From the NCBI GenBank assembly GCA_965225815.1, contig CBDDBP010000007.1, positions 221,621 through 285,620 of the forward strand: DNA of 64,000 nucleotides. The letters run 5' to 3'. The translations under genes and the position numbers were made by a program. Position 1 is the first letter of the stretch. Each line of letters starts with the position of its first letter. Shown here piece after piece: positions 3,542 to 52,634 of the stretch. The notes beneath the pieces are model-generated. The model saw nothing but the letters and a program-made list of their open reading frames with translations. It had not been told where the DNA came from and made no database searches. The stretch comes from Dehalococcoidia bacterium (GTDB lineage: Bacteria > Chloroflexota > Dehalococcoidia > DSTF01 > WHTK01).

Positions 3542-4366
3542 GTGGCCTCCCAGGCGCGAGTGAGCATCGGCTTAGACACGACGCGGGCTTTTGCTCCGCT
3601 GGCACTGCTTTTCGTGGCGTTCGTGGCGCTGCCATTGGTGGCGCTAGGTTGGCGGGCAGTCGAGAGCGGCGAACTGGCCGACAACGTGACCTCGGAACTG
3701 GTCCTGGATGCGATGCGGCTGAGCGCGATCACGAGCACGATTACGCTGGTGCTGGCGGTCCTTTTCGGCACGCCGGTGGCGTATTTGCTGGCTCGCCGCG
3801 ACTTCCCCGGCAAGACGCTGGTGGACTTGCTGGTCGATCTGCCGATCGTCCTGCCGCCGACCGTGGCGGGCGTGGCGTTGTTGGTGGCCTTTGGGCGACG
3901 AGGCGTGCTTGGCGGTGAGTTAGACGCTCTGGGGATCGAGCTGGCGTTCACGACCGCCGCCGTTGTGATGGCGCAGCTCTTTGTCTCGGCCCCGTATTAC
4001 ATTCGCACCGTAAAGGCGGGATTCGAGGGAGTGAGCCCCGAGTATGAAGGCGTGGCGGCGACGCTGGGCGCGGGCCCGTTGCGCGTCTTCTGGCGCATTG
4101 TGCTGCCTCTGTCGTGGCCTTCGGTGCTGGCCGGCGCGATCTTGTGCTGGGCGCGCGCCCTGAGTGAACTGGGGGCGACGCTGGTCTTCGCCGGCAGCTT
4201 CCCGGAGCGAACCCAGACGATGCCGCTGGCGATCATCGGTGTCTTCGATTCCGGTTCGTCCGTGGATGTCGCGATCGCGCTGGCGGTGATCCTTGTGGTG
4301 GCGGCCGCGGCGATGCTTTTACTGCTGCGATTGGTGGCGCGACAGGCGACAAGGCCGGGCGTATGA
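3542..4366 (+). CDS. modB: molybdate ABC transporter permease ModB
   Basis: CysTW/ModB-type permease with the EAA-loop region (...ARALSELGATLVFAG...). GTG start sits 2 nt after the modA stop. Confidence 0.75.
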   Translation: MASQARVSIGLDTTRAFAPLALLFVAFVALPLVALGWRAVESGELADNVTSELVLDAMRLSAITSTITLVLAVLFGTPVAYLLARRDFPGKTLVDLLVDLPIVLPPTVAGVALLVAFGRRGVLGGELDALGIELAFTTAAVVMAQLFVSAPYYIRTVKAGFEGVSPEYEGVAATLGAGPLRVFWRIVLPLSWPSVLAGAILCWARALSELGATLVFAGSFPERTQTMPLAIIGVFDSGSSVDVAIALAVILVVAAAAMLLLLRLVARQATRPGV

Positions 4367-4367
4367 C

Positions 4368-5474
4368 GTGCTGACGGTCGACTTTGAGAAGCGGCTGGGC
4401 GACTTTCATCTGCGCCCGCGCTTTAATGCGGAAGATGAACTTGTCGTCCTGCTTGGCCCGTCGGGTTCCGGCAAGTCGCTGACACTACGCGCGATTGCCG
4501 GGCTCCTGGAGCCGGACGGCGGACGTATCGAGCTGCCATCCGGGCCGGTCTTTGATTCAGGGACGGGCCTGGATCTGCCGCCCCAAGCACGCAGCGTCGG
4601 TTACGTGGTGCAGGACCTGGCGTTGTTCCCACACCTGAGCGTGGCGGAGAACATTGCCTTCGGTCTTCATCGCTGGCCAAAGGCGGAGCAGCAGGCGCGT
4701 GTGCGGGAGCTGGTGGAGTTGCTCGGACTGGGCGGCATGGAGGGACGCCTACCCCGCGAGACCTCCGGCGGACAGCAGCAGCGAGTCGCGCTGGGGCGCG
4801 CGCTGGCGGCCCGGCCGCGCGTCTTGCTGCTGGACGAACCGTTCAGCGCCCTGGACGCTCCGATCCGGAATGCGTTGCGGCGTGAGGTGACACGGCTGAG
4901 GCGACAGCTGGGATTGCTGGCGCTATTCGTAACGCACGATCTACAAGAGGCGTACGCGCTGGCCGACCGCATTGCGATCTACGACGATGGCGCGGTCCTA
5001 CAAAGCGGACCGCGGGCTGAAGTCTTCCGGGACCCGGCGTCGATCCGCGTGGCTGAGCTTCTGGACGCGCGAAACATTTTCAAGGGTCGCGTCGTCTCAA
5101 AGACGGAGGCCTATACGGAAGTCGAGACGCCGTGGTTCGGAGTAAGGGCGCGTCCGGAGGCGAGGTTGGCATTGAACGCGCGCGCGGCCGTTAGTGTACG
5201 GCCAGAGCACGTCATCCTGCTACGCCGTGATAGGCCGCATACAAACCAGCTGGACACGACGCTGGATGTGGAGTTAATCGACGAAGTGCCGACAGGAAAT
5301 AACCACCGGCTCTACCTGAAGGTCATAGGGTCCGACAATGATCTGTGTGTCGTTGAAGCCGACGTGCCGGCGCACCCCTATCAGGTGATGGGTGTGGCGT
5401 CGAGGAGGGATTGGCGTGTGGCGTTAACTCTCGATGAAACCGTCGCAATCCCAATGGAGTACGAATTAACATAG
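4368..5474 (+). CDS. modC: molybdate ABC transporter ATP-binding protein ModC (with C-terminal TOBE-like domain)
   Basis: Walker A GPSGSGKS, signature LSGGQQQRVALGRAL, Walker B LLLDEPFSALD, and a C-terminal extension of about 130 aa. GTG start at 4368 sits just after the modB TGA. The track ORF begins upstream, in-frame, at 4293. Confidence 0.75.
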   Translation: MLTVDFEKRLGDFHLRPRFNAEDELVVLLGPSGSGKSLTLRAIAGLLEPDGGRIELPSGPVFDSGTGLDLPPQARSVGYVVQDLALFPHLSVAENIAFGLHRWPKAEQQARVRELVELLGLGGMEGRLPRETSGGQQQRVALGRALAARPRVLLLDEPFSALDAPIRNALRREVTRLRRQLGLLALFVTHDLQEAYALADRIAIYDDGAVLQSGPRAEVFRDPASIRVAELLDARNIFKGRVVSKTEAYTEVETPWFGVRARPEARLALNARAAVSVRPEHVILLRRDRPHTNQLDTTLDVELIDEVPTGNNHRLYLKVIGSDNDLCVVEADVPAHPYQVMGVASRRDWRVALTLDETVAIPMEYELT

Positions 5475-6730: not shown

Positions 6731-7404
6731 TCAGTTCAGGCTGAAGGGCGGGTACTTGTCGGTAAAAGCGGCGAGATAGGCGATGACGCGGGCAGTCCAC
6801 CTTTGATAGCCGACCACGAAAGTGTGCAAGCCGGCCGGGAAGGAGCCCGTGAACAGGATCGCGATCTGGGCGATGAAGACCAAAAGCAGTGCAATGATCC
6901 CGATGACATAAAGGATGGCTAGGTGAGCAACCAACTCCATATTTGAATCGCCAGGATGAACTTGATCGGGAAGAACGGCAGGTTTAACCATCGATTCGGG
7001 TGCTCGGGATAGTCGACCTGCATTTGAAGGGGTCGATTAGGTCTCTGATCCAAGTCCATCGGTGGATAGTCGTCAAATAGGTTAAGCAGATAGGCGTTCT
7101 GATTCATGTACCAACGGAGTGCACCGACCTCGAGCTTGAAGAGCCCGCGTGGATGTCGTCCCGTGAAGAGAATTCCCCACAACGAAACGAATACAGCCAG
7201 AACTGCTGTGTATTGGAGATACGCGAGTACGATTAGGTGAGGAACTAGAAGAAGCAGACGTATAAATGTTCCTAGTAGGAGAGGGAGGCCCAATATCCGC
7301 GACTGTCGGGGTTCGCGCTGGATGTCCAGTCGCAAGGGATACGTCGAGGGCGAGTCACTGCCCACGGATTCTGTCGTCATGATCGTCTTCCCCATTACTT
7401 GCAA
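6731..7404 (-). pseudogene. DUF4389-family membrane protein with two tandem DUF4389 repeats, interrupted by a frameshift near 6935-6960
   Basis: Two overlapping ORFs (6919..7404 and 6731..6991) each contain the DUF4389 hallmark ...LFTG(R/S)xPxGLxxFxVGxxRWxxxxxAYLxxxxDxYPP.... The helix preceding repeat 2 is split between frames (FILAIQ | ELVAHLAILY), consistent with a 1-nt indel in the caaata region. Confidence 0.45.
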
Positions 7405-7508
7405 GCCAGTTAACTGCTAACGGGAATATGCGTCTGAGGGCCAGCCCACACGGTTGTCAAGGAGCAATGGTCAGATCGGGGACTGGTCGTTTTGATAGGC
7501 AGGGAGCG

Positions 7509-7707
7509 TCAGGCGAGTTCGAATCGTGGTGGCCGGGAGCTTTGAAGCCGGGGGTGCCCGGACCCCACTGAAGGGGCAGAGGGGTTTTCTTAAGGCCGAA
7601 GTATCAGGCGAGCTCGAATCGCGCGGGTTCTAGCCAAGGCTTTGAAGCCGGGGGTGCCCCGGACCTCACTGAAGGGGCAGACAAGGGGTTTTCTTTAGGT
7701 CGAAGTA
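7509..7707. repeat. tandem direct repeats (~95 and ~104 bp). Each copy begins with a copy of the last ~25 nt, including the stop codon, of the adjacent MBL gene
   Basis: R1 runs 7509-7603, R2 7604-7707, and the gene terminus starts at 7708. The shared opening is tcaggcgag(t/c)tcgaatcg.... Each unit contains the 42-nt element gctttgaagccgggggtgccc(c)ggacc(c/t)cactgaaggggcag. Confidence 0.7.
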
Positions 7708-8679
7708 TCAGGCGAGTTCGAATCGCGGTGGCTCGATCCACTCGCCGGTTGGGGGATTCTCCTGGAGGAAGACGGCGCGGCGACGGTCCTGCTCGCGGTA
7801 TTCATCGGCCTGGCTCAGAACGGCCTCGCGAGTGGCGTGCTCGGCGGCTTCCTGCGCCGTTTCGGCGTCTGTGGGCTTGTGCGGCTTACCGGCGTGGAGC
7901 TGAAGGCGCCCCTCCTTGTCCAGCTTTGTGAGGTGACTCTGGACGTTGCGGTCGGCCGTGCGCCTGAGGCGGGAGTCGATGTCGGTGTAGATACGCTCCA
8001 TGATTTGCCAGCTGGTCAGCGGCTCGTCTTTAGAGAGTTCGGTGAGGATCTGTGACTCGCGTGTCTCGCGGTGCGAGATGTACTCGTTGATCAGGGCGGC
8101 TGGATTTTCGATCAGCGGGCCGTGGCCGGGGCAGATAAGGCGGAGGTTCGGCAGGGCCCTGAGGCGTCGCAGGCTCTGCATGTAGTCGGCTAGATCGTTG
8201 ACCGCGGTTGTGCTGCCGCCAAGGATCGTATCCCCGGTAAACAGCACGCCTTCCTCCTCGAGGTAGAAGCAGAGCGAGTCTGGGCTGTGTCCAGGCGTGT
8301 GCATGACCTGGAGACGGACGCCGCCGCCGGGACTGAGCGTGCCGCCTTCGAAGAGCGGGAGGACGTGGTCGGGCAGCTTGCCTTCGAGGCGGGATGCAGT
8401 CTCGGGCGAGACGTGGGCCTCGGCGTTGAACTCCTCGCAGACCCAGCGCAGGTTCGAGGAGTGGTCGAAGTGGAAGTGAGACAGCGCGCTGAGGCCAATC
8501 TCCGCCTTTTCGGTCGCGGCGAGATAACCGCGCAGCATCCAGCGGTAGCGGTCTTCATCGGCGCCGGTGTCTATGGCTAAGACCTGGTCTCGGCCGACGA
8601 GGTAAATCGTGGTGAACTGCGGGTGCATCGGGTCCGTCTCTGGGACCTGAACGGCACGGACGCTGGGGCTGACCTGCAT
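7708..8679 (-). CDS. MBL-fold metallo-hydrolase
   Basis: HFHFDHSSN (HxHxDH) and HTPGHSPDS motifs, followed by a C-terminal ~90 aa extension. Confidence 0.65.
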   Translation of the reverse strand: MQVSPSVRAVQVPETDPMHPQFTTIYLVGRDQVLAIDTGADEDRYRWMLRGYLAATEKAEIGLSALSHFHFDHSSNLRWVCEEFNAEAHVSPETASRLEGKLPDHVLPLFEGGTLSPGGGVRLQVMHTPGHSPDSLCFYLEEEGVLFTGDTILGGSTTAVNDLADYMQSLRRLRALPNLRLICPGHGPLIENPAALINEYISHRETRESQILTELSKDEPLTSWQIMERIYTDIDSRLRRTADRNVQSHLTKLDKEGRLQLHAGKPHKPTDAETAQEAAEHATREAVLSQADEYREQDRRRAVFLQENPPTGEWIEPPRFELA

Positions 8680-22804: not shown

Positions 22805-23147
22805 GCTGGGAGTATACGGCGGGAGACGCGGGGCGGCAGATGTAGAGCGAGGGCGAATTCTATGCGTGTTTTTTACAAACGCGGGTAGACAGGTGATCAG
22901 ATCTGTGCTTATACTGCCGCTGGCTGTGGCGGGCCGAACAGCACATCGCTCGACCAGTGTGGATTAGAGTCAACTTACTTGCCCCGCCGGCTCTACTCCA
23001 CGTTCTTTCGCAGTCCTGGTCGAAATGGCTAAATGGTTCTCCTCCTCAACGGATACCCGGTCCGCCGCAGTCACCAACTAACCCCTCGGTTTCAGTCAGC
23101 GCTTGAGGCGTCAGCCAGGCTTTGCTGGTAAGTCGAGTGTTTCCGTC

Positions 23148-23781: not shown

Positions 23782-25626
23782 CTACTCGACGGTGACGACT
23801 TTGGCGAGGTTGCGCGGCTGGTCGACATCGCAGCCTTTGAGCCGAGCCAGGTGATACGCGAAAAGCTGCAAAGGGATGGCCGTCACCAGCGGCTGTAGCA
23901 GCGGTGGCGCGTTGGGAACGTAAACAACGTCGCGAACGCGGTCGCGAATCGATTCATTGCCTTCCGTGGCGATGGCAATGACGATGCCGTCGCGGGCTCG
24001 GACTTCCTCGATGTTGTTGAGCATCTTGACGTAGTGCTCATCCCGCACGGCGATGGCGACGACCGGCATCTTGGCGTCGATCAGCGAGATCGGACCGTGT
24101 TTCATCTCGCCGGCGGGGTAGCCTTCGGCGTGAATGTAGGAAACCTCTTTGAGCTTAAGGGCTCCCTCCATTGCGCTGGTGTACTGGATGCCGCGGCCAA
24201 GGAAGAGGACGTTACGGGCGCGTCGATAGCGCCGGGCGAGTTTTTCAACCGCGGGCTCGGTCTTCAGCGCTTCGCCGATGATCTGGGGCGCCCGGGCAAG
24301 GTCGCTGAGGGCGGCGAGGAGATGGTCGCCGCCGAGGAAGCCGCGCTTGTGGCCGATGTAGCAGGCCAGTAGATAGAGCGCGGTCAGCGAGCCGAGATAG
24401 GTCTTGGTGGAAGCGACAGCGACTTCAGGCCCGCATTGCATGTAGACGATGCCATGGGCCAGCCGCGTGGCCTGAGAGCCCGGCGTGTTGCAGACCGTGA
24501 CGACGTGAGCGCCACGGCGCTTCGCTTCGAGCATCGCACCCAGGGTGTCGACGGATTCTCCCGACTGGCCGACGGAGACGACGAGGGTGCGCTTATCGAG
24601 CACGGGGCGGCGGTAGCGGTACTCGGAGGCGTTGTCGGCCTCGGCGGGTAAGCCGGCGAGCTGTTCGACATAGATTCGACCGACCTGGGCGGCGTGGAAG
24701 CTCGTCCCCATCCCGATGAGGACGACCCGGTCGAGGTCTGAGATCTCACGGTCACTGAGATTGAGGTCTGCGAGGTGGACGGCGGGCGGTTCGAGCTGGG
24801 CGGCATCGCGTAGCGTGTCGAGCACGGCCTCTGGCTGCTCCGCGATCTCCTTCGCCATGTAGTGGTCGTAGAGGCCTTTGCCGGCGACGTATGAGCCGAC
24901 GGGCAGCGTCTGTGGCTCTTTTTGAATCGGCTGGCCGTTGAAATCGGAATACCTTGCGCCGCTGCTGGTGACGCAGGCCATCTCGCCGTCCTCGAGAAAG
25001 ACGACGCTCTGGCTTCGATCTGCGATGGCGGGGAGGTCGCTAGCAACGAGCATCTCGTCCTTGCCGTAGCCGATAACGACGCCGCCGGCGTTGGCGACCC
25101 GCGCCGCGACAATGACGCCGGGTTCCTGCTGGTGGATCGTGAGGACGGCCGCTGCACCTTCGATCCGGCTCAGGGCCGCCGCGGTGGCGCCCGCGAGGTC
25201 GAGGCCGTTCTTGATTCCGGATTCGATGAGATGAGGAATGACCTCCGTGTCGGTCTGGGAGCGGAATTCACAGCCCTTCGATTCGAGCTCGAGTCGCAGC
25301 TCGCGGTGGTTTTCGACGATGCCGTTGTGGATGACGGCGATCTCGTTACTGCAATCGAGGTGAGGATGGGCGTTGAGTTGCGAAGCGCGGCCGTGGGTGG
25401 CCCAACGCGTGTGGCCGATCCCCGTGCCCGTGCCTTTGAGTGAGGCAGGGATCTTGTTGCGCAGGTTGACCAGCTTGCCAGCGTCCTTGGCGGTGGCCAG
25501 GGCGCCGTGGCTATCGATCACGGCGATGCCGGCGCTGTCGTAGCCGCGATATTCGAGCTGAGACAGGCCGTCGAGGACAACGGGGACGGCCTCGTCAGGG
25601 CCGACGTAGCCAACGATGCCACACAT
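23782..25626 (-). CDS. glmS: glutamine--fructose-6-phosphate aminotransferase GlmS
   Basis: N-terminal MCGIVGYVG (Ntn Cys), two SIS domains, and the C-terminal ...VTVE. 614 aa. Confidence 0.9.
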   Translation of the reverse strand: MCGIVGYVGPDEAVPVVLDGLSQLEYRGYDSAGIAVIDSHGALATAKDAGKLVNLRNKIPASLKGTGTGIGHTRWATHGRASQLNAHPHLDCSNEIAVIHNGIVENHRELRLELESKGCEFRSQTDTEVIPHLIESGIKNGLDLAGATAAALSRIEGAAAVLTIHQQEPGVIVAARVANAGGVVIGYGKDEMLVASDLPAIADRSQSVVFLEDGEMACVTSSGARYSDFNGQPIQKEPQTLPVGSYVAGKGLYDHYMAKEIAEQPEAVLDTLRDAAQLEPPAVHLADLNLSDREISDLDRVVLIGMGTSFHAAQVGRIYVEQLAGLPAEADNASEYRYRRPVLDKRTLVVSVGQSGESVDTLGAMLEAKRRGAHVVTVCNTPGSQATRLAHGIVYMQCGPEVAVASTKTYLGSLTALYLLACYIGHKRGFLGGDHLLAALSDLARAPQIIGEALKTEPAVEKLARRYRRARNVLFLGRGIQYTSAMEGALKLKEVSYIHAEGYPAGEMKHGPISLIDAKMPVVAIAVRDEHYVKMLNNIEEVRARDGIVIAIATEGNESIRDRVRDVVYVPNAPPLLQPLVTAIPLQLFAYHLARLKGCDVDQPRNLAKVVTVE

Positions 25627-25754
25627 GCGGGCCTCCGGTGCGGCGCGAGACGCGTCTTTGCGTACCTACGAATCGTAGGCAGCACGACACGCCGCGGCGA
25701 CCGCGACTATGAGGAGGAACGGAGGACTGTCTGGGGAATCGCGAAGTCTTCGCG

Positions 25755-25960
25755 ATGCACGTCGGCGCAGTTTTGTCGGGAGCTTGCGCATCCCGGTTTG
25801 TCTGCGACGTTACGACTGTGCCAGCCGAGAGGCCACCCGCCGAGTTTTTCGAAGAGCCTCTTCCTCGTCATCCGATTGGCTTTGAAAGCCCGGGGACACC
25901 CCGGACCCCGCTAAAGGGGGTTACAAAGCTGGCAAATCTTCAATCGGACCTGGCGCTTTC
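25755..25960 (-). ncRNA. glmS_ribozyme: glmS ribozyme (glucosamine-6-phosphate-activated self-cleaving ribozyme) in the glmS 5' UTR
   Basis: The minus strand reads A|GCGCCAGG..., then ...UGACGAGGAAGAGGCUCUUCGAAAAACUCGGCGGGUGGCCUCUCGGCUG...GUAACG...CAAACCGGGAUGCGCAAGCUCCCGACAAAAC. The GACGAGG-AGG-UUCGAA-UCGGCGG-UG-CCUC-CGGCUG core and the CAAACC...GACAAA P4 region match the conserved glmS ribozyme pattern. It ends about 130 nt upstream of the glmS ATG. Confidence 0.7.
25879..25929. repeat. copy of the ~45-nt dispersed element (gctttgaaagcccggggacaccccggaccccgctaaagggggttacaaagc) embedded between the ribozyme's 5' AGCGCC and the GACGAGG core
   Basis: About 80% identical to the element at 7539-7579 and 7639-7680. 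In the minus-strand transcript it can fold as GCUUUG...CAAAGC closing two GC hairpins. Confidence 0.5.
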
Positions 25961-26148
25961 AGAACGACAGTCCCTGGGTCAACCTCCCTATCGAGTTGCT
26001 GGAAGTGAATATAGCACGGGTCGAACAGACCGGTAGTCAGGTGGTTCAGGGACAGGGCGGAGGGCGCCAAAGCGCTGGATGCCGAAGGGAGGGGTATATA
26101 CGCAGCTCGAGGAAGCGTCGGGAGGCGCGGCCAGCGCGTTTGAAGACG

Positions 26149-27009
26149 TTACTTGGCGGCGGCGAGCGCTTCGAGGCGTTCAACGACCTGGTCGACGACG
26201 AAGTCCGGCGTTGAGGCGCCGGCGGTGACACCGACGCGTTCCTGATCTTTAAGCCAGTCGGGGTCGATCTCGTCGGCAGTCTCTATGTGGAACGTCTCGA
26301 CACCGCGCTCGCGGGCGACGACGGCAAGATGGCGTGTGTTGGCGCTGTCGCGGCCGCCGACGACGATCATCAGCGAGACGCTATCGGCGAGGTGCATCGT
26401 CGCGGCCTGCTGCGCCGTCGTGGCGTGGCACAGGGTGTTGAGCACCCGCAGCTCGCTGATGCGGTCCATGTTGACTTCGAGCAGCGTCTTGACGAAGGAG
26501 GCGAATCGCGCCTCCGTCTCGGTGGTCTGAGACAGGATACCGACGCGGGACGGGAAGTCAGGAGGCAGCTCAGCGACGTCGCTTTCCGCCGCGAGGCAGA
26601 GGACGTAGCCGGTAGCCCAGCCGAGGACGCCGCGAACTTCTTTGTGATTGGGGTCGCCGAAGACGACGAGGGCGAAGCCTTCCTCTGTGAGGCGCTTGGC
26701 CCACTGCTGGGAGCGAGTGACGATGGGGCAGGTGGTGTCGATGATTTCGATGCCGTTGGATTCGAGATCGCTGATGACCTGCTGGCTGACGCCATGAGCC
26801 GTGATGGCGACCGGCCGGCCCGCGACCTCGGAGACGTCCGTTACGACGTCGAGGCCTTCGTCGCGCAGCCGGTTCACGACCTGCGGGTTGTGGACGACGG
26901 AGCCGAGGCTGACCATCGGCCCGCGTTCGCGGACGGACTCCTCCATCATTTCAACGGCGCGCCGGACGCCGAAGCAGAACCCCATTTCGGTGGCGCGGAC
27001 AATTTGCAT
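26149..27009 (-). CDS. ispH: 4-hydroxy-3-methylbut-2-enyl diphosphate reductase IspH
   Basis: MGFCFGVRRA N-terminus with the three conserved Cys regions of IspH/LytB. 286 aa. Confidence 0.85.
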   Translation of the reverse strand: MQIVRATEMGFCFGVRRAVEMMEESVRERGPMVSLGSVVHNPQVVNRLRDEGLDVVTDVSEVAGRPVAITAHGVSQQVISDLESNGIEIIDTTCPIVTRSQQWAKRLTEEGFALVVFGDPNHKEVRGVLGWATGYVLCLAAESDVAELPPDFPSRVGILSQTTETEARFASFVKTLLEVNMDRISELRVLNTLCHATTAQQAATMHLADSVSLMIVVGGRDSANTRHLAVVARERGVETFHIETADEIDPDWLKDQERVGVTAGASTPDFVVDQVVERLEALAAAK

Positions 27010-34220: not shown

Positions 34221-34250
34221 TTGTCCTGACGCCAGCGCCGCACCTATACT
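34221..34250 (+). promoter_or_regulatory. candidate sigma-70-type promoter (TTGTCC - 18 nt - TATACT) for the riboswitch-btuFCD transcript
   Basis: Hexamers read directly from the sequence. Spacing is 18 nt. Predicted TSS is about 34257. Confidence 0.3.
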
Positions 34251-34257
34251 GCCGTCA

Positions 34258-34478
34258 CGTCATGGGTGTCCCTCTTGCAAGCGAGGGAGTAAATGCGAAG
34301 CCGGTCAAAAATCCGGCGCTGTCCCGCAACTGTAGCCCCGAAAACGATTCGGGGGAGCCAGGCCGCCAGCCCGTGACGATGTCTCTGGAAGCCTCCGTGG
34401 AGGGGCCGAGACATCGTCTGAGCCAAGGCATAAGACGATTCGCCCCCGGCCCCATAGAGGCCGGGGTTTTGTTTTGCG
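34258..34478 (+). ncRNA. cobalamin (AdoCbl) riboswitch with intrinsic-terminator expression platform
   Basis: GCGAGGGAG...GCGAAGCCGGUCAAAAAUCCGGCGCUGUCCCGCAACUGUAGCC...GGGGGAGCCAGGCCGCCAGC contains the conserved cobalamin-riboswitch blocks (GGUxAAAAUCC, GCUGxCCCGCAACUGUA, AGCCAGG B12-box region). It is followed by the hairpin CCCCGGCC-CCAUAGA-GGCCGGGG plus UUUUGUUUU at 34444-34476. It lies upstream of a BtuF-like binding-protein gene. Confidence 0.7.
34444..34476 (+). terminator. intrinsic terminator (8-bp GC stem + TTTTGTTTT) forming the riboswitch OFF-state
   Basis: Read directly from the sequence. Confidence 0.65.
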
Positions 34479-50292: not shown

Positions 50293-51379
50293 ATGGGTCA
50301 CAAGACGCATCCGATCGGCTTCCGCCTGGGAATCCTGTATCCGTGGCAGAGCAAGTGGTACGCCGACAAAAACTACACAGAGCTGCTGCACGAGGACCTG
50401 GGCCTGCGCAAGATGATCCTGGCGCGCCTGTCCGATGCGGCGGTATCTCGGGTTGAGCTGGAACGCAACGCGAACCAGGTCATCGTCACGATTCATACGG
50501 CAAAGCCCGGCATCGTCATCGGCCGAGGTGGTCAGAAGGTCGATGAGCTTCGCGGCGACCTCGAGAAGAAGACGGGCCGCAGGATCCGGGTGAATATCGT
50601 CGAGATCCGCCAGCCGGAACTCGACGCCTACCTGGTAGCGCGCAGCGTCGCAGACCAGCTGGAACGCCGGGTGGCTTTCCGCCGGGCAATGAAGCAGGCG
50701 GTGACTCGGACGATGCAGCGTGGCGCGCGCGGCGTGAAAATAACGGTCGGCGGACGCCTTGGTGGTTCTGAGATGTCGCGTCGCGAGACGGAAAAAGACG
50801 GCCGTGTGCCGCTGCATACGCTGCGAGCAGATGTTGACTTTGGCCAGGCCGAAGCGGCGACGACATTCGGCCGAATCGGCGTGAAGGCGTGGATCTACCG
50901 CGGCGACATCATGCCTGAGCCGAGTGCGGCACGCCCCGGCGAAGAAGAGACAAGCCTGCCTCCGACGCCGGTCACCCCTGTTGCGCGGCGGCGGCACCGG
51001 TTGCCCCCGCCGCACCTGTGGCCGAGGCGGCACCGGTTGCCCCCGCCGCACCTGTGGCCGAGGCGGCACCGGTTGCCCCCGCCGCACCTGTGGCCGAGGC
51101 GGCACCGGTTGCCCCCGCCGCACCTGTGGCCGAGGCGGCACCGGTTGCCCCCGCCGCACCTGTGGCCGAGGCGGCACCGGTTGCCCCCGCCGCACCTGTG
51201 GCCAGGCGGCACCGGTTGCCCCTGCAGCACCTGTAGCTGAGGCGGCTCCAGCCGCACCCGCCGCACCTGTAGCCGAGGCACCGAGCCCGCCGGCAGCAGA
51301 AGCGCCGCTCGCAGCACCAGAGACTACGGCGGCCGAGCCAGCGGCGTCGGAAGAAACGCCAGGAAGCGGGGAGGCCTAG
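50293..51379 (+). CDS. rpsC: 30S ribosomal protein S3 with Ala/Pro/Val/Glu-rich tandem-repeat C-terminal tail; the tail frame is interrupted twice in this sequence
   Basis: The canonical S3 KH/C-terminal domains run in frame 1 to about 50985. The plausible tail ([12 protein letters not shown] repeats ... GEA*) lies in frame 0 across the repeats and frame 2 after a 1-nt deletion in copy 6. It ends 3 nt before rplP. The uninterrupted frame 1 would encode [12 protein letters not shown] x6 and then a TAG at 51238. Confidence 0.75.
50992..51278 (+). repeat. 36-nt tandem repeat (cggcaccggttgcccccgccgcacctgtggccgagg): 5 identical copies, a sixth with a 1-nt deletion, then 2 diverged copies, inside rpsC
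   Basis: Read directly. Substitutions in copies 7 and 8 are synonymous only in the Ala/Pro frame. Confidence 0.8.
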
Positions 51380-52029: not shown

Positions 52030-52634
52030 GCGAGAGTACGCGAGGGCGTCGCAAGAGCCTGATAGGAACTGTTGTCAGCGTCAAGATGGAAAAGACGGCT
52101 GTCGTGTCGGTAGAGCGCCGTTATCCGCATCAGCTCTATCACAAGATCATCCGATCGACGAAGCGCTACAAGGCGCACGATCCGCTCAACGCAGCGGTCC
52201 TGGGTGACACGGTCCGCATCGTGGAGACGCGTCCGATTTCGAAAGAGAAGCGATGGCGCATCTCCGAGACGATGACGCGCGGCAACGTGGCCGACATCGC
52301 GCCGCGTGAGATCGGCGTGCCCGAAGAAGGTCTGTATCATCCGGAGCGCCCAGACCCGGCGCCGGCGGCTGTAGCAGAAGCCGCGGTTGAGGCGGAGACC
52401 CCGGAGGCGGCAACCGAAGCGGCGTCTGCGGAAGAAACGTCACCAGCGGCTGAAGCACAGGCTGCAGTTGAGGCGGAGACCCCGGAGGTGACAACCGAGG
52501 TGGCGTCCGTTGCGGATGAGGCTCCGGTCGCTGAGCCGGAAGCGGCTCCGGCCGCTGAGCCGGAGGCGACACCAGCCGCTGAGGTCGGAGAGACGACTGG
52601 GGAAGAGCCGGCAGAGGGCGGCGAAAAGGAATGA
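52026..52634 (+). CDS. rpsQ: 30S ribosomal protein S17 with ~110-aa Ala/Glu/Pro-rich C-terminal extension
   Basis: Canonical S17 OB-fold core, then ...[22 protein letters not shown]...[12 protein letters not shown] overlaps the L29 stop. Confidence 0.85.

Follow-up and report, generated by a model that had tools for sequence, protein, structure and literature searches.

A predicted glmS ribozyme of Dehalococcoidia carries a copy of a genomic repeat element in its P1 loop

The sequence analysed here (the window) is a 64,000-nucleotide (nt) stretch of contig CBDDBP010000007.1 from a bacterium of the class Dehalococcoidia (phylum Chloroflexota), with a GC content of 62.6%. On its minus strand, upstream of glmS, the window contains what is, judged from the sequence, a genuine and functional-looking glmS ribozyme that would control the adjoining downstream gene. 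The apical loop of the P1 hairpin of this ribozyme is enlarged by a copy of a short GC-rich repeat element, which is also found in a tandem array elsewhere in the window and in other Dehalococcoidia genomes, and which is probably carried in P1 as a tolerated passenger.

When the whole window was scanned with Rfam 15 at gathering thresholds, two matches were obtained. One is to the glmS ribozyme family (RF00234), with a score of 79.0 bits against a gathering threshold of 37 and an E-value of 1.7e-16; the match is untruncated and covers model positions 1-167 of 167. An earlier note on this DNA, made from the letters alone, had proposed a glmS ribozyme in the 5' untranslated region (UTR) of glmS on the basis of an AGCGCC block and a match to the ribozyme core. 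The scan confirms this identification: the block and the core both align to the RF00234 consensus, and the open reading frame (ORF) downstream encodes a protein with GATase and SIS domains. In the cmscan alignment, AAAGCGCC, GACGAGGA, the UCGGCGG block and the ACAAA linkers agree with the consensus. The core blocks A↓GCGCC (the arrow marks the predicted cleavage site), GACGAGG, CGGCGG and ACAAA coincide with upper-case consensus positions and are invariant in the relatives described below. Cleavage is predicted inside the AAA↓GCGCC block, a position that we take to be established for the glmS family.

The secondary structure is likewise that of the family. A consensus fold of six Dehalococcoidia ribozymes (with P1 interiors trimmed; MAFFT misaligned the short-P1 with the long-P1 forms) contains 43 pairs, 10 of which show compensatory changes, and these lie in the P1 base, P2, P4 and P4.1. 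One U-C mismatch is flagged in P4 of the window sequence in the RF00234 alignment. For P2.2 (CGCC/GGCG) and P3.1 (GCAC of the P3 loop with a 3' GUGC), the complementary strands are present; they are invariant and hence give no covariation signal. The loop of P4.1, L4, is a GNRA tetraloop (GCAA, 25787-25784); in Bacillus subtilis, P1 holds the receptor for the L4 tetraloop and docking of L4 with P1 is documented (PMC11602151). Over the ~520 nt upstream of glmS, the public contig L001, which encodes a GlmS protein identical to that of the window, differs from the window at one base, 25786, in the L4 loop region (GCGCAAGC in the window, GCGTAAGC in L001), and the loop is of the GNRA type in both.

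The glmS start codon (ATG at 25626) lies on the same strand as the ribozyme, 126 nt past the ribozyme end at 25753. From family membership we infer both catalytic activity and the mode of control: glucosamine-6-phosphate (GlcN6P) would bind the preformed core and serve as the cofactor with which the RNA cleaves itself between A25957 and G25956, and the downstream fragment, with its 5'-OH end, would then be destabilised, with less GlmS being made. In Bacillus, glmS is down-regulated through decay of the 5'-OH product by RNase J1. No other natural ribozyme is known to employ a metabolite as its cofactor.

The glmS ribozyme is usually described as strikingly uniform. In the window, AGCGCC and GACGAGG lie 82 nt apart, versus about 31 nt in the Rfam consensus: the earlier note had rightly seen this spacing as enlarged, although it put the distance at ~90 nt and set it against ~40 nt in Bacillus. 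The excess lies wholly in the apical loop of P1, into which 58 nt are inserted; the consensus has 6 nt there (cmscan). A repeat insertion into the P1/P2 region, as proposed earlier, is supported as to insertion, given the plain P1 of the outgroup ribozymes and the presence of the element throughout the clade described below, but it is confined to the apical P1 loop and leaves the 9-base-pair (bp) base untouched. This base (GUCC.../...GGAU, about 7-9 bp) is unchanged in 10 relatives, with the insert distal to it, and the GGAU immediately 5' of GACGAGG is invariant in all 10. In relatives, A-U to G-C and other compensatory changes are found in the helix (columns 21-25/39-43).

Within the window, the best non-self matches of the P1 insert are two units of the tandem array (local alignment scores of 39 and 38), and the next match scores 24. 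Shuffled sequences gave a mean of 14.5, a standard deviation of 2.4 and a maximum of 28 (n = 2000); by this comparison of sequences, the similarity between insert and array unit is real and well beyond chance. With respect to the minus-strand genes, the element runs the same way in the insert as in the array units. Profile searches of about 0.5 Mb of sequence agree in both directions: a hidden Markov model (HMM) trained exclusively on free-standing copies recovers the P1 copy of glmS with an E-value of 7.5e-11, and an HMM built from P1 copies only finds the free-standing copies with E-values of 4e-9 to 9e-5. The P1 copy of the window is identical at 42 of 44 positions to a free-standing copy in another genome, L086. 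The claim that the extra sequence is a copy of the array element is thus upheld. The closing stem GCUUUG/CAAAGC that had been proposed for this copy occurs in the centroid fold of the window insert and is absent from the minimum free energy (MFE) fold. The helix that closes the insert varies by lineage, being GCUUUG/CAAAGC in the window centroid and UUGAAAG/CUUUCAA in L092, with other pairings in L002. The coordinates of these and other features are collected in Table 1.

Table 1. Features of the glmS ribozyme locus and of the tandem array, in window coordinates.
Feature	Position	Strand	Basis
glmS ribozyme, full length	25753..25968	-	RF00234 match and covariation in relatives
Predicted cleavage site AAA↓GCGCC, A25957 (A-1) / G25956 (G+1)	25956..25957	-	Alignment to consensus 'aAaAGCGCC'
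P1 base helix, 5' strand GUCCGAUUG	25941..25949	-	Pairs with 25878-25870 CAAUCGGAU
P1 base helix, 3' strand CAAUCGGAU	25870..25878	-	RF00234 alignment, fold, covariation
Apical P1 insertion, 62 nt between the P1 base strands	25879..25940	-	cmscan; simple hairpin in outgroups L095 and L096
Repeat element copy CCCCCUUUAGCGGGG-UCC-GGGGUGUCCCC-GGG-CUUUCAAAGCCAA	25875..25920	-	nhmmer E 7.5e-11 (model from free-standing copies only)
glmS gene (glutamine--fructose-6-phosphate aminotransferase), 614 amino acids	23782..25626	-	ORF; Pfam GATase_6/7 and SIS; source names of homologues
Shine-Dalgarno (SD) sequence GGAGG of glmS	25636-25632	-	
Leader strand: GGGAGG 25988-25983 and GGGACUGUC 25974-25966	25966..25988	-	Upstream of cleavage site; pairs with 25731-25712
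Trailer strand: GACAGUCCU 25731-25723 and CCUCCU 25717-25712	25712..25731	-	Just 3' of ribozyme
Candidate extended -10 element TGCTATATT (TGnTATAnT)	26008..26016	-	Upstream alignment; kept in 10/10 related leaders
Tandem array, element copies 7538-7577 and 7637-7678	7509..7732	-	Tandem Repeats Finder (TRF); repeat families D4, D6, D14; nhmmer
Metallo-beta-lactamase (MBL)-fold gene	7708..8679	-	Pfam Lactamase_B

The glmS leaders were compared across lineages (designated here by L numbers) whose GlmS proteins are 95% to 69% identical to that of the window; the GlmS homologues that bear a source name come from Dehalococcoidia. All the leaders are RF00234 matches (54.5-81 bits), and over the core (GACGAGG to GUGCAUCG) these relatives share 80-95% identity with the window. 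The distance from AGCGCC to GACGAGG is 31 nt in L096 (GlmS 69% identical) and 33 nt in L095 (71%), two outgroups with a plain P1 hairpin. It is 68 nt in L097 (83%), 74 nt in L002 (95%), 77 nt in L092 (86%), 78 nt in L098 (84%), 85 nt in L005/L089 (86%), 120 nt in L100 (85%) and 208 nt in L099 (86%). Every member of the clade with GlmS at least 83% identical (eight lineages) has the element or its remains in apical P1, in 1 to ~3 copies. The multiple copies are direct tandem repeats: L100 (1128-1260; 71.1 bits) has two in a P1 insertion of about 91 nt, and L099 (1039-1260; 54.5 bits) has about three in an insertion of 184 nt. In L002, the closest relative, the core is 95% identical to that of the window and the P1 interior only 57%, with both GC hairpins of the element broken. 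The P1 copy is decayed in L097 as well, and the ribozyme cores of L002 and L097 are intact (75.5 and 70 bits, respectively). In the more distant L005, the P1 interior is 87% identical to that of the window. Among the metagenome GlmS matches listed (L006-L085), which have at most 56% identity, a ribozyme-like leader was seen in L020 only. The simplest reading of this distribution would be a single insertion in the ancestor of the clade, followed by drift, decay and tandem amplification.

Sequence comparison also indicates that the element is an apparently low-copy repeat family common to several Dehalococcoidia genomes and previously undescribed. In RNA orientation, it consists of (G)CCCCUUYAGYGGGG, 2-4 nt, a hairpin and (A/G)CUUYCAAAGCC(AA), and is GC-rich and ~45 nt long. 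The central hairpin pairs through differing stems (CCGGGG/CCCCGG, UUUGGGGG/CCCCCAAA, AUGGAGG/CCUCCAU and CGGGGC/GCCCCG): on 12 copies, 92.9% is paired and three pairs are changed on both sides. In the same copies, no covariation is seen in the first hairpin. Conserved motifs, CCCUUYAG and CUUYCA, flank the covarying hairpin, which G-U pairs can extend in the gene-codirectional orientation only.

A descriptor scan of the window found three copies at two loci, versus 0.16 under the null, with none on the opposite strand in any gene context. A strict pattern, which would miss diverged copies, gave six matches in 185,579 species-representative genomes, a set that includes the complete 3.2-Mb chromosome OZ240228.1. 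Three of these are true, all in Dehalococcoidia: the glmS P1 of L089 and free-standing copies in L086 and L088, each of the latter located after a peptidase A24 gene (Pfam) and before a small ORF. The matches in L087, L090 and L091 were rejected as chance occurrences inside coding sequence. In L086, there are 3-4 sub-copies with a 34-nt period. Profile searches identified a diverged sub-family in L088, a 78-nt x 4 array at 4214-4518 (-) with the hairpin UUUGGGGG-UGU-CCCCCAAA, between a divergent major facilitator superfamily (MFS) transporter gene and fabF. In L094, upstream of xseA, there is a copy that the orthologous site of the window lacks, and L092 has a related hairpin downstream of glmS. 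The search for further copies that had been suggested earlier has thus turned up a family extending beyond this genome. The description of the element as dispersed holds in that it occupies two loci in 64 kb and occurs in other genomes, but it appears to be low-copy, with a maximum of one strict match per genome. All five independent loci are codirectional with the downstream gene: glmS, a DUF4389 gene, fabF, xseA and the small ORF after the peptidase A24 gene.

The array in the window, previously placed at 7539-7680, is real: TRF reports 7539-7727 with a period of 104 nt, 1.9 copies and 91% matches. It is a local tandem duplication in which three copies of the last 25 nt of the MBL-fold gene, stop codon included, alternate with two ~79-nt spacers bearing the element. 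The next gene downstream on the same strand encodes the DUF4389 protein. Since the 104-nt unit duplicates the gene end together with the spacer, two pseudo 3' ends of the MBL-fold gene follow the real one. A tRNA origin of the 25-mer, which contains TTCGAAT, was considered and rejected: ARAGORN found no tRNA, and the MBL-fold gene itself ends in this 25-mer.

Several known kinds of element were considered for the repeat. It has no match in Rfam even at E<=5, and it was not found in viral contigs or in plasmid or phage collections. An intrinsic terminator was rejected: within 25600-26160 the element has nothing that resembles a terminator, the sole such site in 7350-7800 (7474-7488, plus strand) lies away from it, and the tail 3' of the element hairpin is (G/A)CUUUCAAAG rather than a U tract. 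The position of the L088 array between divergent genes also counts against this reading. A MITE (miniature inverted-repeat transposable element) was rejected because its ends, GCCCCUUCAG... and ...CUUUCAAAGCC, do not form terminal inverted repeats; comparison of the occupied site in L094 with the empty site at 22805-22870 of the window revealed no clean insertion with a target-site duplication. The alternating orientation of repetitive extragenic palindromic (REP) sequences and bacterial interspersed mosaic elements (BIMEs) was not observed, as all arrays are direct tandem (units of 104 nt in the window, 34 nt in L086 and 78 nt in L088, and likewise the arrays within P1 of L099 and L100).

The ribozyme is enclosed by a helix between a leader strand and a trailer strand (GGGACUGUC/GACAGUCC and GGGAGG/CCUCCU), a feature not known from the studied glmS examples. 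In 10 related leaders, 94.6% of cells are paired, versus about 50% with the partners slid, and an A-U to G-C compensatory change is found in the outgroups. In folds with the ribozyme masked, removal of the leader allows the CCUCC strand to pair with the SD sequence in some lineages: the predicted probability of an unpaired SD sequence drops to 0.00 in the window (0.57 with the leader), to 0.04 in L005 (0.51 with the leader) and to 0.31 in L100 (0.60 with the leader), with little change in L002, L092, L097 and L099. Pairing of the trailer with the SD sequence after leader loss is a speculative prediction of these folds, which are suggestive only; the leader-trailer helix may point to a lineage-specific read-out of cleavage. 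Farther upstream, ~50 nt from the cleavage site, TGCTATATT is a putative promoter element, identified from its sequence and its retention in related leaders. A simple sigma-70 scan found no canonical -35/-10 pair upstream of glmS.

Taking these observations together, we consider it probable that the locus is a glmS ribozyme in which a copy of the repeat sits as a tolerated, neutral passenger in the solvent-exposed P1 loop. A ~45-nt GC-rich element would have landed in the P1 loop of the ancestor of a Dehalococcoidia subclade and would then have drifted, decayed or multiplied in tandem there, giving 1 to ~3 copies. With the P1 base kept, the insert would project away from the core, and the ribozyme would tolerate it. 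This reading follows from the decay of the P1 copy in the closest relative and from the internal fold of the insert, which is not conserved. The earlier note had left open whether the insertion was tolerated or co-opted; the decay in L002, the copy number of 1 to ~3 and the lineage-varying closing stem favour tolerated. Foreign hairpins and deletions have been accepted in apical P1 in experiments (PMC3035436; PMC7125110). That the insert is neutral, and that the element was copied into P1 rather than out of it, is what we infer.

A number of points weigh against a neutral passenger. Activity with an insert of 58-184 nt is an assumption, and the insert persists in eight lineages. The copies in the window and L005 are within 2-3 mismatches of free-standing copies in other genomes; neutral drift does not predict such near-consensus persistence, which hints at selection, gene conversion or recent re-insertion. 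All copies are codirectional with the downstream gene, as would fit a function at the RNA level. The two outgroups might have lost the element instead of the clade having gained it, but this is less parsimonious because the family consensus P1 is also short. The genome of the window is itself absent from the strict-pattern matches.

The strongest alternative, although an unlikely one in our estimation, is that the insert has been co-opted as a functional RNA module (a protein site or a stability or processing signal) that would be at work in other 5' UTRs as well, and that would serve glmS as a second input or as a means of tuning the kinetics of folding or cleavage. Its retention in the eight lineages would be explained, as would the closeness of the window and L005 copies to the family consensus despite the divergence of the genomes. 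The uniform orientation at five of five loci, the conserved flanks around a covarying hairpin and the orientation-dependent extension of that hairpin by G-U pairs are also consistent with a role in RNA. However, copies have decayed in L002 and L097 beside intact ribozyme cores, copy number is not fixed, the predicted closing stems and whole P1 folds differ among lineages, and the first hairpin lacks covariation. The orientation bias amounts to just 5/5 (p ~0.03) and may reflect replication-strand bias of an element acting at the DNA level. More doubtful still is an extended form of this proposal, in which the element would be a structured RNA module that acts in one orientation in the 5' UTRs and intergenic regions of Dehalococcoidia, is held close to consensus by selection and serves as a second input to glmS, with the leader-trailer helix coupling cleavage to SD sequestration. 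Were this true, loss of the 5' leader would free the CCUCC strand for the SD sequence, a translational expression platform undescribed for glmS ribozymes.

Copying in the reverse direction, with the ribozyme P1 stem-loop as the source of the free-standing copies, appears very improbable. Few copies match the family consensus as well as the P1 copy does, but in the outgroup ribozymes, as in the Rfam consensus, P1 is short and lacks the element. The free-standing copies occur in several genomes and contexts, include diverged sub-families such as the L088 array, and have no other ribozyme sequence beside them. Least credible of all is a relic disabled by the insertion, with glmS controlled otherwise (for example, by the leader-trailer helix and SD sequestration): insertions of 58-184 nt could slow co-transcriptional folding, and the conserved leader-trailer helix and CCUCC motifs are a possible other layer of control, but the core is 80-95% identical where the GlmS proteins are 69-95% identical, and compensatory changes keep the helices with the core blocks intact, which together point to purifying selection on a working ribozyme.

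As a tolerated passenger, the P1 insert would provide a tangible example of a catalytic RNA that a repeat has invaded but not destroyed, and would illustrate peripheral tolerance, at a site that engineers already use (for example, for P1-loop tags). The relatives form a natural series in which the same core is combined with a P1 region of 31 to 208 nt and 0 to ~3 repeat copies, which bears on folding, cleavage rate and regulation. The repeat family, with its strong tendency toward tandem amplification, would be a new feature of a poorly studied and mostly uncultured bacterial class.

Two other features of the window were recorded. The second Rfam match is a cobalamin riboswitch (RF00174) at 34247-34388 (+), with a score of 60.6 bits against a gathering threshold of 31.5. 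Downstream on the same strand is a gene for a Peripla_BP_2 (BtuF-like) substrate-binding protein (L001 gene calls), and the riboswitch is overlapped by a 121-amino-acid gene call without Pfam matches. At 50990-51279 and 52357-52583 there are long tandem repeats, all in phase (8.1 copies of a 36-nt unit with 94% matches, and 81-nt and 24-nt units nearby), which probably encode a repetitive Ala/Pro/Glu-rich protein segment.

A full-text literature search for glmS ribozymes in Dehalococcoidia found nothing, the primary glmS diversity surveys lying outside this check. The ribozyme of the window is a structural variant of the known glmS ribozyme class, with an apparently unreported P1 insertion. 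It shares with the ribozymes of B. subtilis, B. anthracis and Thermoanaerobacter tengcongensis its place in the 5' UTR of glmS, the A↓GCGCC cleavage site, the GACGAGG, CGGCGG and ACAAA blocks, helices P1, P2, P2a, P3, P4 and P4.1, the complementary strands of P2.2 and P3.1, and a GNRA L4. In contrast to these, the apical P1 loop is 58 nt rather than about 6 nt (up to 184 nt in relatives), the insert derives from a repeat family of the genome, and the host is a high-GC member of the Dehalococcoidia, whereas the studied examples are from Firmicutes.

Variants from Deinococcus-Thermus, which McCown, Roth and Breaker are said to have described in RNA in 2011, reportedly have extra stems in or beside the catalytic core or its supporting substructures. 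These are likewise natural glmS ribozymes that tolerate added architecture, but what has been added in the window lies strictly in apical P1, shows homology to a repeat found elsewhere in the genome and differs in copy number among close relatives. Insertions have also been engineered at this site. A U1A loop is reported to have been inserted in glmS P1 for crystallography. In the ARiBo tag, the lambda boxB was engineered into glmS P1 (PMC3035436). Such constructs are an experimental precedent for tolerance at P1, but they are small, single, designed hairpins, whereas the insertions here are natural, multi-hairpin, 58-184 nt long and tandem-duplicating. The element itself resembles REP sequences and BIMEs in being short, GC-rich, hairpin-forming, intergenic and often clustered, with a covarying stem. 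REP sequences, according to PMC2817692, typically number >100 copies per genome. The Dehalococcoidia element differs from them in its apparently low copy number, in clusters that are direct tandem rather than alternating, and in its conserved single-stranded flanks and uniform gene-codirectional orientation.

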